From Candidatus Woesearchaeota archaeon (GTDB lineage Archaea > Nanobdellota > Nanobdellia > Woesearchaeales > UBA10216), in the NCBI GenBank assembly GCA_023269295.1, contig JAHFTU010000001.1:1-27274 (forward strand): 27,274 nt of DNA, given 5' to 3'. The notes below the pieces were generated by a model, which was given only the letters and a program-made list of their open reading frames with translations, did not search any database and was not told where the DNA came from. The translations under genes were made by a program, and so were the position numbers. Positions 4,520 to 24,817 of this stretch are shown piece by piece (within the stretch, counting starts at the first letter, position 1; the number at the start of each line of letters is the position of its first letter).

Positions 4520-6271
4520 ATGCTTAGAACTCACACATGCGGGGAGCTGACCGCGAAAAACGTCAAGGAGATAGTAATGCTCGCTGGCTGGTGCCATTCC
4601 AGAAGGGACCACGGCGGGGTAATCTTCATAGACCTCAGGGACAGGTACGGGCTCATGCAGGTAGTTCTTGACCCCAGCCACAGCAAAAAAGTGCACGAGC
4701 TTGGGGAGAAAGTTGGCAGGGAGTGGGTAATTGTTGCCAAAGGCAAGGTCAGGAACCGCCCGAAGGACATGGTTAACCCCAAGCTGAGAACTGGGGAGAT
4801 TGAAGTTCTTGTTGATGAGCTTTCCATAATAACAAAATCTGCTGTCCCTCCGATTGAGATTGACGACAGGGTAGAGGCAGCTGAAGACATAAGGATGAAG
4901 TACAAGTATCTTGACCTGAGAAGACCAGTAATGCAGCAGCGGCTGGCTTTCAGGCACAAGGCGACCATAGCAGTAAGGGAGTATTTCAACAAGAATAAGT
5001 TCATTGAAATTGAAACCCCGCTGCTTGTAAGGTCAACGCCTGAAGGAGCAAGGGACTATGTAGTGCCAAGCAGGGTAAACCCTGGCAAGTTCTACGCCCT
5101 CCCGCAATCGCCGCAGCTGTACAAGCAGATACTGATGATTTCAGGATTTGACAGGTACTACCAACTGGCAAAATGCCTGAGGGATGAGGATTTGAGGGCG
5201 GACAGGCAGCCGGAACACACCCAGATTGACTTTGAGATGAGCTTTGTTGACGAAAAAGATGTAATGGGCTTCGTAGAAGGGTTGTACAAGCACCTGTTCA
5301 AGGAAATGCTCGGAGCTGATTTGAAAACACCATTCAAAGTTCTGACTCATGCAGAGGCAATTGATAAGTACGGGATTGACAAGCCTGACTTAAGATTCGG
5401 GATGGAGCTTATTGACGTAACTGAGATTGTTAAGAAATCAGAGTTCAAGACATTTGCAGCTGAAGAGCAGGTAAAATGCCTAGTTGCAGAGAAAGACTTT
5501 GGAAGGAATGAGATTGACGAGCTGATAGGATGGGCAAAGGAGAATGGCGCAAAGGGGCTGGCCTGGATGAGGGTGACTGAGAAAGGGCTGGAGTCATCCA
5601 TTGTAAAGTTCTTTGGCAGTGAAATACAAAAACATCTGCTGCAAAAAACAAAAGCCAAGAAAGGCACTGTGATGTTTTTCGTTGCAGACAAGAAAAAGAA
5701 GGTTGCTGAAGTACTTGGAAAGCTCAGGCTGGAGCTTGGGAGAAGGCTTGGCCTGATGAAAGCTGAAGAGTTCAACTTCTGCTGGGTAACGGATTTCCCG
5801 CTGTTTGAGTGGAACACGGAAGAGGACAGGTGGGAGGCAGCGCACCACATGTTCACCTCGCCAAAGCAGGAGCACATTGAACTGCTGGAAAAAGCGCCTG
5901 AGAAAGTCCTTGGCACTCTGTTTGACCTTGTACTGAACGGCACTGAGCTTGGCTCTGGCTCAATACGCATCAATGACCCTGAGCTTCAGGAGAGGGTGAT
6001 GAAAGTGGTAGGAATAGACCACAAGGCAGCTGAAGCAAAGTTTGGCTTCCTCCTTGAAGCATACAAATACGGAGCGCCAGTGCACGGCGGCATGGGAATA
6101 GGATTTGACAGGACTGTAGCACTAATGCAGGGGCTCCACGACATCAGGGAAGTGGTTGCATTCCCGAAAAACAAGAAAGCCGAATCGCCAATGGACGGCT
6201 CGCCATCTGAGATTGAAGACAAGCAGCTGAAAGAGCTGCATGTAAAGACTGATGTCTTAAAGAAAGAGTGA
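4520..6271 (+). CDS. aspS: Aspartyl-tRNA synthetase, bacterial type (GAD-domain insertion), probably non-discriminating
   Basis: MLRTHTCGEL...RRDHGGVIFIDLRD, PEGARDYVVPSR, ALPQSPQLYKQILM, FRDEDLRADRQPE-type motif 2 and GGMGIGFDR motif 3. It is 583 aa with a GAKGLAW-containing GAD insertion. Confidence 0.96.
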   Translation: MLRTHTCGELTAKNVKEIVMLAGWCHSRRDHGGVIFIDLRDRYGLMQVVLDPSHSKKVHELGEKVGREWVIVAKGKVRNRPKDMVNPKLRTGEIEVLVDELSIITKSAVPPIEIDDRVEAAEDIRMKYKYLDLRRPVMQQRLAFRHKATIAVREYFNKNKFIEIETPLLVRSTPEGARDYVVPSRVNPGKFYALPQSPQLYKQILMISGFDRYYQLAKCLRDEDLRADRQPEHTQIDFEMSFVDEKDVMGFVEGLYKHLFKEMLGADLKTPFKVLTHAEAIDKYGIDKPDLRFGMELIDVTEIVKKSEFKTFAAEEQVKCLVAEKDFGRNEIDELIGWAKENGAKGLAWMRVTEKGLESSIVKFFGSEIQKHLLQKTKAKKGTVMFFVADKKKKVAEVLGKLRLELGRRLGLMKAEEFNFCWVTDFPLFEWNTEEDRWEAAHHMFTSPKQEHIELLEKAPEKVLGTLFDLVLNGTELGSGSIRINDPELQERVMKVVGIDHKAAEAKFGFLLEAYKYGAPVHGGMGIGFDRTVALMQGLHDIREVVAFPKNKKAESPMDGSPSEIEDKQLKELHVKTDVLKKE

Positions 6272-6275
6272 GCCG

Positions 6276-6830
6276 ATGTTCACACTCATCACAGGCAACG
6301 AGCAGAAAATAAGGGAGTTTGAGCTTGTTCTGAAAGGCTCAGGGATAATGTTTGAGGTTCTGCGGGCTGAGAAGCCTGAGCTAAGATCTGATGACCCTTG
6401 CGAAATTGTGAAGGTTGCAGCCAAGACCTTTGCTGAGGAGCTGAGAAAGCCTGCTGTTGTTGAAGACTCTGGATTGTTTATTGAGGCGCTTAAAGATTTT
6501 CCGGGAACATGCACTAAGTATGTTTACTCAAGGATTGGCAACAGAGGAATACTGAAGCTGATGAAAGGTGAAAAGAACAGGCGGTGCTGGTACAAGTCTG
6601 CCGTCGGCTACTGCGAGCCAGGAAAAGAGCCGGTTTGCTTCCTCGGGGTTGAAGAGGGAAGGATTGCTGAGAAGGAAAAAGGCAAAGAAGGATGGGGGCA
6701 GGACCCAATATTCATACCGAAAGGTAAAAGCAAGACGTACGGCGAGCTTAGAATGGCTGGGGATGTTAATCTGTTCAGGAAAGATGCTGTTGAAGCGCTA
6801 AAACGCTATTTGAAGGGTGAGTCACTATGA
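6276..6830 (+). CDS. Ham1/RdgB-family non-canonical NTP pyrophosphatase with a divergent specificity motif
   Basis: ITGNEQKIRE, VEDSGLFIEALKDFPG and GWGQDPIFIP are present. The C-terminal SHR is replaced by LFR. Confidence 0.88.
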   Translation: MFTLITGNEQKIREFELVLKGSGIMFEVLRAEKPELRSDDPCEIVKVAAKTFAEELRKPAVVEDSGLFIEALKDFPGTCTKYVYSRIGNRGILKLMKGEKNRRCWYKSAVGYCEPGKEPVCFLGVEEGRIAEKEKGKEGWGQDPIFIPKGKSKTYGELRMAGDVNLFRKDAVEALKRYLKGESL

Positions 6831-7603
6831 ACGCAAGATCATTAACAGCTGGACTGGTGTACTATACGGGGAAGTTTTTTGCAAACCTAGTAACCATGCA
6901 CAAGTATGAAGCTGTAGGAACAGATGCAATACCAAAAAGAGAACCGTTTGTCATAATGGCAAGCCACGATTCTTCAATGAATATAATTGAGGATGGAAAC
7001 CTTACGACAAGACGCCTGAGCTTCTTGTCAAAGTCCGAGAACTACAACAATCCTGTTTTCAGCCTTCTTCAGCGGCTTGGCGGCCAGATAAGGTTCGATA
7101 GGAGTGGCGCAAACATGGATGAAGTATATTCAGGACTAGAGCACGCAGTTATTGATAATATCGGGATTGTGATTTACCCTGAAGGCACCCGGAATACAGC
7201 CCCCATAATTGGAAAAGCCGGGCGGCGCGTGATAGACATTGTTGGGCACGTTGTGGAGTTAAGCTCAAGGCACCATGCACGCATTTATTTTGTTGCATTA
7301 GGAAGGACAGTAGACGGAAGCGGTTATACAACAGTCACCTGCGAGCAGAAGGCATACGCCGAAAATGGGCAAATTGTCATTCCAGAGGGCAATGCAAAGC
7401 TTGAATATGAAATGCAAAAGCCGGAGGGGAAAGGCTTGGAATTCTTTGTAAACGGGCATATCATGCCAACGCTTGCAAGGCTAAGCCACAAAACCTACAA
7501 TCCATCCGTGAGCGCAATCATGATTGGCATGCTCAGCAAGCGAGGAACGAGACACCTACCAAAAAAGCCAGACCCCGGGAAGTCACCCACCAGAAATAAC
7601 TGA
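6827..7603 (+). CDS. PlsC-like lysophospholipid/glycerolipid acyltransferase family protein
   Basis: Motif order GTDAIPKREPFVIMASHDSSMN, FLSKSE, GQIRFDR, IVIYPEGTR matches acyltransferase blocks I-III. The ATG overlaps the upstream stop (ATGA). Confidence 0.75.
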   Translation: MNARSLTAGLVYYTGKFFANLVTMHKYEAVGTDAIPKREPFVIMASHDSSMNIIEDGNLTTRRLSFLSKSENYNNPVFSLLQRLGGQIRFDRSGANMDEVYSGLEHAVIDNIGIVIYPEGTRNTAPIIGKAGRRVIDIVGHVVELSSRHHARIYFVALGRTVDGSGYTTVTCEQKAYAENGQIVIPEGNAKLEYEMQKPEGKGLEFFVNGHIMPTLARLSHKTYNPSVSAIMIGMLSKRGTRHLPKKPDPGKSPTRNN

Positions 7604-21574: not shown

Positions 21575-22777
21575 TTAAAGATTAAGCGCCTCCTCTAACA
21601 GCCGCCTTACAACAGGGGTTGCTGCCTGCGGGGCGAGCATTATTTCCCTGGTTCGGCCATACCTCCCCTTTGAAATAACCCGCGCTGTAATTATGCCGAG
21701 CATATCAAACTCAGACAGGATGTCAGAAACCCTTCGCTGGGTTAACGGGCGGAGGCTAGCCTTGGCGCAGTATTTCTTGTAAAGCTCATAAACCTCACCT
21801 GTAAAAATAAACTTGCCAGCTCCATGGCTGATATTCAGGATAGAATACAGAACTAATTGTGCCTGCCGAGGCTGGGTTGTTACCAGCTCAGCAACAGTGT
21901 CGTGGTCAATCTTTTCCTCAGCGCTGTCAACATCAGCAACAGCAACAGATGTTGCACCCTTTCTGTCAGTAAGCTCACCAGCCACTCTAAGAAGGTCAAG
22001 CGCCCTTCTGGCATCGCCGTGTTCCCTAGCCGCATAAGCGGCGCACTTCTCAACAACACCAGGCTCGAGAGAGCTGTGCTTGAAAGCTGAAGAAGCCCGG
22101 TTATTAAGTATATCCTGAAGCTCAATAGCGTTATAGGGAGGGAAAAGCAGCTTTTCCTCGGAAAGCGAGGATTTCACCCGCGGGTCCAGGTGCTCGGCAA
22201 ACATCAAGTCATTTGAAATCCCGATTATTGCGACTTGCGTGTTCTTGAGCTCCTCGTTCTTTCTTGTAATCTTGTACAGGAAATCGTCGCCAGCCTTTTT
22301 CATCAAATAGTCTATTTCATCCAAAATAATAATAAGAATGCTTTTTGTGGAATCAGCTTTGGAGAAAAAAGCGCTGCAAACATCATCAGTTGAAAGCCCG
22401 GTGAGGGGAAGCTCCTTCCCAACCTGCGTAGCCAGCTCTGTGAAAAGGCCATATTCTGTGTCAGCATCAAGCTTACAATTCACATAAAGCGTCTGGATTG
22501 AAACACCCGCTTTTTTTGCAGCAGAAACAAGCTCTCCATTAATTACCCACTTAACAACCAATGTCTTGCCAGTACCGGTTTTTCCATAAATAAAAAGATT
22601 GGAGGGCCGCTCCAAACGCAACGCCGGTGCCACCACAACCCTCACCTGGTGGATTTGCACAGCACGATGAGGGATATCATTCGGGAAATGATTAGCTTGA
22701 AGGACACGCTTTTCCTTAAACACAGATCCTTTTTTCAGATATTCCTCAAAAAACTGCGGAAGATTCTTTTCCTTCAA
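21575..22777 (-). CDS. cdc6: Orc1/Cdc6 replication initiator
   Basis: Walker A IYGKTGTGKT, Walker B IILDEID, DPRVKSSL, HGDARRALDLLR and a wHTH ending SKGRYGRTR. The TTG at 22777 is preferred because GGGGTG lies 6 nt upstream, in the same GGGGTGTTTATC context as tbp. Confidence 0.96.
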   Translation of the reverse strand: MKEKNLPQFFEEYLKKGSVFKEKRVLQANHFPNDIPHRAVQIHQVRVVVAPALRLERPSNLFIYGKTGTGKTLVVKWVINGELVSAAKKAGVSIQTLYVNCKLDADTEYGLFTELATQVGKELPLTGLSTDDVCSAFFSKADSTKSILIIILDEIDYLMKKAGDDFLYKITRKNEELKNTQVAIIGISNDLMFAEHLDPRVKSSLSEEKLLFPPYNAIELQDILNNRASSAFKHSSLEPGVVEKCAAYAAREHGDARRALDLLRVAGELTDRKGATSVAVADVDSAEEKIDHDTVAELVTTQPRQAQLVLYSILNISHGAGKFIFTGEVYELYKKYCAKASLRPLTQRRVSDILSEFDMLGIITARVISKGRYGRTREIMLAPQAATPVVRRLLEEALNL

Positions 22778-22783
22778 GATAAA

Positions 22784-22972
22784 CACCCCACTGTTTCTTA
22801 TGGAAAAACAAGGAAACCTCTTAATAAGGATTCCGCTTAAATAAAATATACATTCAAGACACACCACCTGTGTTTTTTCGACGTGAAAACCATCAGCAAT
22901 AATAATTTCAATATTGAATTAAACTATAGGTGTTGGTTGTTGTTTTTGGTGTTTCCATGAGAAGTGGAGGTG
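22784..22972. other. Candidate replication origin oriC
   Basis: Inverted ORB-like boxes TTCCATAAGAAACAGTGGGGTG (minus, 22784-22805) and TTCCATGAGAAGTGGAGGTG (plus, 22953-22972) flank an AT-rich core. A degenerate mini-ORB, TTCGACGTGAAAAC, lies at 22877-22890. The region is directly upstream of cdc6-polB-polC. Confidence 0.75.
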
Positions 22973-23045: not shown

Positions 23046-23846
23046 ATGTTGATGCAGAAAGAAGTCATAAACCAATTAAAAGATATAGGCCTTAATAGCT
23101 ATGAGTCCAAGCTCTGGCTTGCCCTTCTTGCAAAGGGAGTTGCGTCTGCCGGTGAGCTTTCTGATATGGCTAATGTCCCAAGGAGCCGGAGCTATGATGT
23201 TCTTGAGAGCCTTGAGAAGAAGGGTTTTATCATAATGAAGATTGGGAAGCCAATAAAATACATAGCTGTCCAGCCTGAGCATGTTATTGATAATGTAAGG
23301 AAGAGGTTGGTTGAAGATGTTGACCTGCAGGACAAGCTCTTAAGTAAGATAGGGCAAAGCCCGCTTATTGATGAGCTAAAGCTGATGTACAAGAGCGGCG
23401 TCAGGGAGATTGACCCGCTTGAGCTCACCGGCAGCCTAAAAGGCAGAAAAAACCTTTACCACCACATTGAGCGAATGATTAAGAACGCCGAGAAAAGCGT
23501 TATTCTCACCACAACCGCTGCGGGCATCCTGAGGAAAAAGGATGTTCTTAGAAATGCGCTGCGCAAGGCAAAGGAAAGAAGGGTTAAGGTCAGGGTTGTT
23601 GCCCCGATAACAAGTGAAATGAAGCCGCAGCTGGAAGAGCTGGCAGGCCTTGTAGAGCTCAGGCACACCAGCACACCAGCACGATTCTGCGTTGTGGATG
23701 GCAAGGAGGCTGTCATTATGCCAATGGATGATGAAATAACAAATCCTGCCTCAGACGTAGGCATCTGGGTAAGGTCAAAGTTCTTTGCCTCAACATTTGA
23801 GAAGTTGTTTGATTCTTCATGGGCAACGCTGAAGCCTGTTTTTTGA
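23046..23846 (+). CDS. TrmB-family transcriptional regulator/chromatin protein (TrmBL2-like)
   Basis: N-terminal wHTH GLNSYESKLWLALL...VPRSRSYDVLESLEKKGFI...GKPIKYIAVQP, followed by a PLD-like effector domain (FCVVDGKEAVI). Confidence 0.92.
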   Translation: MLMQKEVINQLKDIGLNSYESKLWLALLAKGVASAGELSDMANVPRSRSYDVLESLEKKGFIIMKIGKPIKYIAVQPEHVIDNVRKRLVEDVDLQDKLLSKIGQSPLIDELKLMYKSGVREIDPLELTGSLKGRKNLYHHIERMIKNAEKSVILTTTAAGILRKKDVLRNALRKAKERRVKVRVVAPITSEMKPQLEELAGLVELRHTSTPARFCVVDGKEAVIMPMDDEITNPASDVGIWVRSKFFASTFEKLFDSSWATLKPVF

Positions 23847-23858
23847 TTGTTCACTAAA

Positions 23859-23866
23859 TTTATAAA
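23859..23866 (+). promoter_or_regulatory. TATA box for the DGR-target-like gene
   Basis: TTTATAAA, with a GGTGG RBS at about 23900 before the ATG at 23914. Confidence 0.5.
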
Positions 23867-23913
23867 ATACATGAACATTCAAAGCATCTAATTGTGTTGT
23901 TGGTGGATTAAAA

Positions 23914-24720
23914 ATGAGCTCACAATTAAATATGCCTTCTGTTGATTATAATTATAAGGAGTTTTTAGGTGGGAATGCAGAGCAAATGCAGTTGCTGCTT
24001 TCTGGTAAGGATAATAATGGAATTGTTGTTGATGTTCCGAGAGTGCCCATATCTGTTTTTGGTGTTATGGAACAGCGCATCGTTGTTTTTGAGTTCTTGA
24101 AGCTTGCCAGCAATCGTGGTTGGAGGGCATATCGTCGTCTAGGCAGTCATTATGAAGTTGTTCAAAATTTTACAGAGATAATGGAAAACTGGTTTGACAA
24201 ACGTATTGATACATGTGATGGTGTTGTCAGGCATAGTGACGGCCGCTTGAAAGTTGTTCTTGATGCACAGTACCTGAGACAGCTTACTCATGATACTAAG
24301 CTTGTTGATGGTGCGGTTCCTTTATCTGATGATGTTTACAGGGGGTTGTCTGGTGAGGAGTTTAGTTCTAAGCAGGTTGGGCAGTATTTCAACAAGCCTT
24401 TAAGCAGGGGTGAAGCAAAGCAGCATCCTGTCTGGCTCTCATTGCTTCGCGGCGACCAAGGTTTGCTGAATATGGCTGTGAATGTAATTTTCTCTCAAGC
24501 AAATGGAAGGCTTGGTGGTGTTGGCAAGATGATGGGCATTTACACACCTTCAGCACCTAAAGAAGGTGCTTCCGGGCGTTTGTGGTCTGTCTGCAGGCTC
24601 GACGACTACATCAACTACTCCAGGGCTAATGGCAGCAGCCATTTGGATGACCTCAATGGGCGTCTGGTCGGGGTAGCGCCGGAGGCGCCGCGCGCCGCAA
24701 CACTCGAACGTAGAGTCTGA
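23914..24720 (+). CDS. DPANN DGR target-like variable protein (putative C-type lectin-fold C-terminus)
   Basis: The C-terminus GRLWSVCRLDDYINYSRANGSSHLDDLNGRLVGVAPEA matches, from recalled knowledge, the pattern of DPANN DGR target proteins. It has an NNY-codon-rich 3' region and a GRA-loop hairpin. Confidence 0.72.
   Translation: MSSQLNMPSVDYNYKEFLGGNAEQMQLLLSGKDNNGIVVDVPRVPISVFGVMEQRIVVFEFLKLASNRGWRAYRRLGSHYEVVQNFTEIMENWFDKRIDTCDGVVRHSDGRLKVVLDAQYLRQLTHDTKLVDGAVPLSDDVYRGLSGEEFSSKQVGQYFNKPLSRGEAKQHPVWLSLLRGDQGLLNMAVNVIFSQANGRLGGVGKMMGIYTPSAPKEGASGRLWSVCRLDDYINYSRANGSSHLDDLNGRLVGVAPEAPRAATLERRV
24571..24688 (+). other. Putative DGR variable region (VR) with 3' GCGCC-GGA-GGCGC hairpin
   Basis: 21 of the 24 codons at 24586-24657 end in C or T (15 in C), unlike the T-ending bias in the rest of the gene. 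The hairpin has stems at 24676-24680 and 24684-24688 with a GGA loop. Confidence 0.65.
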
Positions 24721-24817
24721 ATGGGTGGCGAAAGCAAAAGCTTTTTAAATTCGTTTTCTGATAGCAGATAGGTAGCTGTTTAACATCAAGCAACAGTTGT
24801 CAAAAAGAGGTGGGCAT

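Follow-up and report, generated by a model that had tools for sequence, protein, structure and literature searches.

Is the 268-aa ORF at 23914..24720 (plus strand) a DGR target and, if so, where is its template, and is the gene still being rewritten? The window, i.e. the whole stretch of 27,274 nucleotides analysed here, comprises bases 1-27274 of contig C24 (47.5 kb) of genome G000, a Woesearchaeota-type MAG of 1.18 Mb in 127 contigs (88% complete, 2.4% estimated contamination). The first-pass annotation proposed that this gene is an orphan target hypermutated in trans, with neither a reverse transcriptase (RT) nor a template repeat (TR) nearby. Indeed, neither was found anywhere on contig C24, inside or outside the window. 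The ORF end that it quoted and its count of pyrimidine-ending codons (21 of the 24 codons in 24586-24657) were reproduced exactly on re-counting. The gene body has 131 such codons out of 224 (Fisher p=0.007), and C-ending codons number 15/24 in the same tract and 29/224 in the gene body. The GC content rises as abruptly as had been described, from 0.428 in the gene body to 0.581 in the variable region (VR, here 24569-24673) and 0.681 in the tail. The C-rich NNY tract of this gene is real and non-random. A TATA-box-like element (TTTATAAAATA, 23859..23869, plus strand) can be read upstream of the gene, followed before the ATG by an SD-like GGTGG (23902-23906, plus strand), and these putative signals agree with the idea that the gene has its own promoter and ribosome-binding site. 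The first-pass annotation places the gene beside the replication origin; this putative position was checked by adjacency to an Orc1/Cdc6-like gene, identified by sequence and conserved gene order, at 21575-22867 on the minus strand.

What kind of protein is encoded? No Pfam family was found in it, the DnaB_2 match being below the threshold. A search of 5.8 billion clusters gave only 13 homologues, one of which has a source named as a Woesearchaeota archaeon. In the alignment of these homologues, the columns that vary between GRLW.V and GRLVGVAPEA are those encoded by AAC/AAT in the TR described below, and between the two motifs the residues L, I, S, A, G, and HL do not vary. Residues 250-254 of the target are RLVGV; G249, L251, V252, and G253 are invariant among the 13 homologues and V254 is nearly so. 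An AlphaFold (AF2) model of the target has a pLDDT of 68, with the VR below 50 and thus modelled at low confidence. By Foldseek, the sole significant PDB match of this model was 5IOO (E=2.1e-5, prob 1.00). VIA-align gave Z=12.7 and rmsd 3.2 with 178/209 residues aligned, the next best Z being 2.8, and a profile search of PDB sequences with the target gave no match. The 5IOO entry, entitled 'Accommodation of massive sequence variation in Nanoarchaeota by the C-type lectin fold', is AvpA, a nanoarchaeal DGR variable protein whose RFxGV beta5 strand is encoded by the IMH and whose hairpin lies within the coding tail (Handa et al. 2016, PMC5006420). In the target, RLVGV takes the form of this R-F-x-G-V beta5 motif and would likewise be IMH-encoded. 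Thus, the gene encodes a DGR-type variable protein, modelled with an AvpA-like C-type-lectin fold. The assignment to DGR-type variable proteins is strengthened by the coincidence of the variable columns of the family with the AAC codons of the template.

Where is the template? The VR (24569..24676, plus strand) is homologous to G000:C89:7904-8011. By BLAST, the VR has only one other match in the whole genome, at C89:7904-8006 (84% over 103 nt, E=1e-26), and the homologous tract is sharply delimited and leaves out the gene body. The C89 copy is AAC-rich (it reads ...NRLNDNINNSGANGNNHLGNNDGRLVG...) and lies between genes, with a HAD hydrolase gene on one side and an MNT/HEPN pair on the other. 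It is neither a part nor the end of a long ORF; stop codons close its frame just upstream. The contig geometry places it at least 30.7 kb from the target locus. The first-pass annotation had envisaged a non-coding near-copy that differs only at template adenines and is accompanied by RT and Avd-like genes. The copy is there, non-coding and AAC-rich, on another contig of the same genome and directly behind an RT-16 RNA, so that the template is remote as expected. The rest of the expectation failed, since only 12 of the 18 mismatches are at adenines and no RT or Avd gene stands beside the copy. A second GTCGGAATAG on contig C120 was rejected as a chance match in an ordinary coding region with no AAC enrichment.

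Both ends of the VR have recognizable features. The first 10 nucleotide residues (CTTCCGGGCG) include the 3′ end of the RT-16 RNA. At the other end, the homology stops at an IMH-like 3′ boundary (24667..24677, plus strand; GTCGG-GG-TAGC in the VR vs GTCGG-AA-TAGT in the TR), which encodes the RLVGV strand and is identical in the VRs of three related systems (G019, L043, and L044). Just 3′ of the VR, the sequence coding for APEA can form a GC mini-hairpin, GCGCC-GGA-GGCGC (24676..24688, plus strand). The same stem is kept in G019, L043, and L044 and, with GAA or AGA loops, also in G022 and L065, this conservation being confounded by coding. The folding energy of the hairpin is not better than that of shuffles (z=+1.5).

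Do the two repeats differ as the VR and the TR of a DGR should? The repeats differ at 18 of the 106 scored positions (24569-24674); 12 mismatches are at the 27 adenines of the TR and six at the 79 other bases (Fisher p=5.5e-5). The usual DGR criteria place the TR/VR differences at template adenines with about one exception or fewer (PMC5006420, PMC5758913); here 6/18 mismatches are non-adenine, and the sister pairs of L043 and L044 have none. The six (24579, 24622, 24642, 24647, 24648, and 24655) are all transitions, and they were polarised by comparing three further TRs of the same family (G019, L043, and L044). At 24622, 24647, and 24655, A stands in the VR and in every other TR, and G in the C89 TR. 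Thus, these three A>G changes arose in the C89 TR later than the last copying. The remaining positions, 24579, 24642, and 24648, show T in the VR and C in the TRs (three of the four TRs at 24648); these are C>T changes in the VR, all at synonymous third positions. Among the four TRs compared, the C89 TR is the closest to this VR, with six non-adenine mismatches, the other three having 10, 12, and 20. Lineage-specific bases are common to the VR and the C89 TR, among them CTTCC, the 3′ end of the RT-16 RNA, and the VR was therefore copied from the lineage of the C89 module. Since the enrichment at adenines is accompanied by six non-adenine transitions, I class the pair as DGR-derived and not as a currently active DGR pair.

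What is the RNA in front of the TR? The Rfam family RF03019 (RT-16 RNA) matches C89:7789-7909 over model positions 1-158 with 64.5 bits (gathering score 50), ends where the TR begins, and has this single copy in the genome. RT-1 to RT-19 were defined by their proximity to RT genes, and some were speculated to act in DGRs (Weinberg et al. 2017, PMC5737381); in the literature searched, no link of RT-16 to a specific DGR was found. RT-16 lies directly 5′ of the TR in the RT-bearing cassettes of G007, G001, G039 (C5 and C18), L043, L044, and L062. In these Woesearchaeota-type archaea, RT-16 is always immediately 5′ of the DGR TR at the following loci: G000:C89:7789-8040 (L008), L043:6726-7000, L044:1732-2020, L062:1587-1770, L026 (G019), L041 and L037 (G039), L019 (G007), and L021 (G001). 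Intact RT-16/TR modules have a TATA-like box approximately 27 nucleotides upstream, a 5′ strand (e.g. GTCCCAGC) able to pair with a motif immediately 3′ of the TR (GCTGGGAC), and a U-run after this 3′ motif. The pairing of the two ends co-varies between genomes (CCCGGC/GCCGGG, CCCAGC/GCTGGG, and TCTTGG/CCAAGA) and reaches 12 bp in G001. These features suggest a discrete template RNA of about 270-300 nucleotides with paired ends. Judged by its position, RT-16 is the probable 5′ domain of the archaeal DGR template RNA, and it may serve as an RT-independent marker for templates and remote targets.

The C89 module is no longer intact. The 3′ motif and the U-run are present, and the 5′ strand is missing together with approximately 38 nucleotides of stem P1. 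The closing helix thus has no 5′ strand either, and P1 is reduced to a weak U-rich mini-helix. Nevertheless, the TR, RT-16, and 3′ flank of C89 are 81% identical to those of G019 across genera, with target proteins about 48% identical, and this conservation suggests recent constraint. The neighbours of the C89 RT-16 are HAD hydrolase, MNT, and HEPN genes, with no RT beside it. The HAD hydrolase gene, the RT-16/TR, and the MNT/HEPN toxin-antitoxin-like pair form a 2.3-kb island (G000:C89:7013-9352, L008), and the collinear stretch of G004 and G006 lacks this island. Orthology of the MNT genes that follow the TR in C89 and L044 was considered and rejected, as only 28 residues align. At the beginning of the same contig, a segment of about 235 bp (C89:8-243, L008) has further copies, 76-89% identical, on many contigs of all genus members and on C82, C14, and C81 of G000. 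The recurrence is suggestive of a multi-copy element or of a conserved repeat or RNA.

Is there an RT that could read this template? In the 88%-complete assembly of G000, none was found by PF00078 or by tblastn, for which two DGR RTs of the genus and a third from the same order served as queries. Avd was not found in G000 by PF05635, and it is also absent among the Pfam matches listed for the called genes of complete sister cassettes, so that Avd is probably not diagnostic in this clade. The DGR RT loci of the congeners G007, G001, and G002 lie at contig ends. Considering the completeness of 88% and the 127 contigs as well, the RT of G000 could be unassembled.

How did the target gene come to its present place? 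The Orc1/Cdc6, TrmB-like, p78, TFE, and Hjc genes are collinear in 11/11 genomes of the genus, and p78 directly follows TrmB in seven of the ten other genomes (G009, G002, G005, G007, G006, G001, and G010). By synteny, the target gene and its promoter form a target-only insert of 887 bp (23847..24733, plus strand), limited by the stop codon of the TrmB-like gene (23846) and the p78 promoter motif gcaaaagctttttaaa (24734-24749). Among same-genus genomes, only G000 and G003 have the insert; it is also present in a public contig, L065. The G003 copy has a disruption of approximately 30 residues in the VR, and the L065 copy has a codon deletion and synonymous drift. In a comparison of the window with L065, the flanking DNA is 86-87% identical, and only the last 145 bp of the target align. 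The target bodies at this site (23914-24560 of the window vs L065:1622-2170 and L049 of G003) have 37-43% protein identity vs 86-88% DNA identity in TrmB, p78, and TFE, which suggests allele replacement or very fast evolution of the part outside the VR. At the same site, G008 has a gap of approximately 600 bp between the TrmB-like and p78 genes (L053, G008:C1), which may represent what is left of a lost target, or cargo of another kind.

Do the relatives of this target retain complete cassettes? L043 has an RT (431 aa, RVT_1+HTH_40, divergent), a target, RT-16, and a TR, with 18 mismatches at adenines and no non-adenine mismatch inside the repeat. L044 has the same layout with the RT cut by the contig end, and its mismatches number 12 at adenines and none elsewhere inside the repeat. 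L062 is arranged as target, RT-16, TR, and RT, and its aligned segment of 44 nucleotides has five mismatches at adenines and none at other bases. In G019, a C-terminal RT remnant (aligning to RT residues 254-341) stands beside an IS-like ORF, and there are 19 mismatches at adenines and two at other bases. Thus, the non-adenine differences rise with the loss of the RT, from none in the RT-linked pairs to two in G019 and six in the pair of the window, which is the most drifted. In the G019 cassette (L026; G019:C4, reverse-complement 5494-7034), the RT is reduced to the equivalent of its last 90 residues or so. The ORF directly upstream of this remnant has a zinc-ribbon, transposase-like N-terminus, and the abutment of the two indicates that the RT was probably destroyed by insertion.

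Orphan relatives of the target are common. G021 (95% complete, six contigs) has a target and no TR, RT-16, or RT. No TR or RT was found in G003 or, near the target, on contigs L063 and L065, and G022 has kept only an RT-16 remnant after its target. A different case was found in G039. The locus on G039:C22 (L041) has a target, RT-16, and a TR but no RT; its VR matches the TR of the C18 cassette (L037) with adenine-only core mismatches, and its own adjacent TR differs from it by many non-adenine changes and an indel. By this comparison, the target on G039:C22 is a remote one that keeps a decayed private template. In G015, two contig ends (G015:C24:1-260, L031, and G015:C52:6500-6759, L030) carry the same target 3′ end with different VRs. 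The coding flanks are identical for 42 nucleotides upstream and 35 nucleotides downstream of the VR. The second short match in G015 was therefore rejected as a TR, being another version of the VR with identical coding flanks; the pair may be either two VR alleles in the population or two paralogues splitting the assembly. In this MAG (93% complete), no RT was detected.

The source metagenome was examined as Logan assembler contigs, in which rare VR variants are invisible. The target locus and the C89 locus are both present in the same sequencing run. One contig with a depth of 13.4 covers 23815-24688 without any difference from the window. Low-depth contigs match only 24569-24671 and carry TR-like adenines; they are probably from relatives. 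The summed contig depth rises from about 13 to 88 over 24643-24683, the conserved GRLVGVAPEA/IMH segment. This rise implies that the exact segment is shared by many other targets or templates, related to these, of the groundwater community from which the sample came. RT-16/TR words were also found in at least 15 other groundwater and freshwater runs. In an RNA run of the same sample, the share of sampled words was 0.00 for the target gene and for the TR module.

Taken together, the target is a genuine DGR-derived variable protein gene with a cognate remote template, and the pair is now dispersed and drifted. I consider it rather likely that the gene is static at present, i.e. a dormant or fossil DGR target that is still intact and probably still useful as a predicted binding protein, rather than an actively hypermutated one. 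The following course of events may be envisaged. An ancestral cassette would have written the VR by mutagenic retrohoming: the TR RNA would be reverse-transcribed with random misincorporation opposite adenines, and the cDNA would replace the VR up to the IMH-like GTCGGGGTAG boundary and the hairpin. The cassette would then have come apart, leaving the target as the 887-bp insert in the core replication/transcription block and the RT-16/TR in the separate island. The RT gene is missing from the assembly and may have been lost altogether, and RT-16 would have lost the 5′ strand of its first stem. After the last homing, the TR would have acquired three substitutions of A by G, and the VR three synonymous ones of C by T. 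As for the proposed hypermutation in trans, the remote cognate TR exists, and current activity is less likely than a dormant or fossil state, given that no RT was found and that one third of the mismatches are non-adenine. The first-pass annotation had named a static paralogue or fossil target as the alternative if neither a TR nor an RT existed in the genome and the reads showed no hypervariability; about half of this holds, since the TR exists and no RT was found.

Could the target still be active? An RT in the unassembled 12% (in a second cassette of the congener type, a virus, or a plasmid) might use the C89 RT-16/TR RNA in trans and still diversify the VR, perhaps rarely. I regard this as unlikely, though it is the most serious competitor of the dormant state. 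It draws on the incomplete and fragmented assembly and the position of the congener RT loci at contig ends. Since RT-16 is common to different cassette types, a foreign RT could recognise the C89 RT-16. Remote templating is seen within the same order, in the G039:C22 target with the C18 TR, and has been described before (PMC5758913). On the target side, the ORF, the IMH-like end, and the candidate hairpin are intact, as is the 3′ motif of the TR with its U-run; the TR is conserved across genera together with RT-16 and the 3′ flank. The three changes in the TR are all A>G, opposite to the AT-ward drift in the VR, which also counts against simple dormancy, and assembler contigs would miss rare variants of the VR. 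On the other hand, homing from the C89 TR would erase non-adenine differences, and thus the six such differences, none of which has a counterpart in the RT-linked sister pairs, count against an active state. So do the lack of the 5′ strand in the first stem and closing helix of RT-16, the lack of an RT, Avd, or second RT-16 in the 88%-complete assembly, the single VR sequence in the contigs of the source sample, and the absence of both the gene and the TR module from the RNA run. A more far-reaching idea, which seems quite doubtful to me, is that the RT-16/TR module, which in intact copies brings its own TATA box, a closing helix of its two ends, and a U-run terminator, is a free-standing 'template gene' that can exist apart from any RT. 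The DGR would then be fully dispersed, with the target, the template RNA, and the RT at three unlinked places, or with an RT from another cassette, a virus, or a host partner, and would still occasionally rewrite a surface-binding protein amid core replication genes.

Might the template belong to another organism? If the bin is a chimera of strains, C89 would come from a related population in the same sample, its TR would belong to the DGR of that organism, and the target would have no template in its own genome. The HAD gene beside the TR, for which no same-genus orthologue was found, raised the suspicion that C89 is mis-binned; the estimated contamination of the MAG and the presence of other TR-like contigs of lower depth in the sample point the same way. 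However, G009:C3 and G008:C13 are collinear with C89 and 84-85% identical to it, a value similar to the identity of the window to its congeners. It is the most typical contig of the bin by tetranucleotide composition, and its GC content is 0.470 vs 0.469 for C24. Together with the presence of both loci in one sequencing run, the synteny, identity, and composition make mis-binning of C89 unlikely, and it was rejected. Moreover, the VR and the C89 TR share lineage-specific non-adenine bases and the RT-16-derived junction. A chimera is thus very improbable. Last, there is next to no chance that the NNY tract and the C89 match are due to chance or composition or to an ordinary duplicated gene fragment: such a reading could appeal to the non-adenine mismatches, the absence of a Pfam match, and the low confidence of the modelled VR, and it is already effectively refuted by the E value of the repeat with its sharp TR-type boundaries and lack of homology to the gene body, the RT-16 RNA directly upstream of the C89 copy, the adenine-only mismatches of homologous genes in complete RT-bearing cassettes, and the AvpA fold of the target model.

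If the target is dormant, this genome offers a view of a DGR after the loss of its enzyme: the variable protein persists as an ordinary gene in the conserved Orc1-TrmB-TFE-Hjc block, and the template RNA gene lies elsewhere. Pipelines that start from the RT are blind to such RT-less remnants. DGR targets of DPANN archaea are thought to mediate host attachment. The present case suggests that many 'hypothetical' AvpA-like genes of DPANN archaea are frozen products of past hypermutation.

How does this system compare with known ones? The target model resembles AvpA (5IOO) in consisting of one domain, a C-type-lectin fold of some 200 residues that carries helical inserts. Both have a short VR near, yet not at, the C-terminus and a non-variable R-[FL]-x-G-V strand, encoded by the IMH in AvpA and by the IMH-like segment in the target; the putative hairpin of the target would lie inside the coding tail, as in AvpA. 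In contrast, the sequence identity is only about 11-13% with no HMM-level match to the PDB sequence, the VR part of the target model is of low confidence, and the tail after the VR is 46 residues long in AvpA vs 15 in the target. Close systems are also the complete Woesearchaeota cassettes of L043, L044, and L062, whose targets belong to the same protein family (40-52% identity) and which have the GRLW...GRLVGVAPEA scaffold of the VR and the RT-16 RNA in common with the system of the window. The C89 TR has 13 differences in 106 nucleotides to that of L043 and likewise to that of L044. These cassettes differ in having an adjacent RT (RVT_1 + HTH_40), a full first stem of RT-16 with the closing helix, and no non-adenine mismatches. 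Remote DGR targets are well documented in Treponema denticola and others (Wu et al. 2018, PMC5758913), and the trans action of the TR and the RT was experimentally established for BPP-1 (PMC5758913). As in those systems, the present target lies far from its template and has a VR, an IMH-like end, and a putative hairpin. There, however, the TR stands beside an intact RT and the mismatches are essentially adenine-only, whereas here the TR is detached from any RT, none was found, and non-adenines account for one third of the mismatches. With the full RF03019 model, the score of the C89 element exceeds the gathering threshold, but the family was defined near RT genes (PMC5737381), whereas the C89 element has no RT nearby and its stem P1 is reduced. 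AvpA-like proteins 'with no DGR' had already been noted in Woesearchaeota genomes (PMC5006420). The most useful by-product of this analysis is the placement of RT-16 as the putative 5′ domain of the template RNA.
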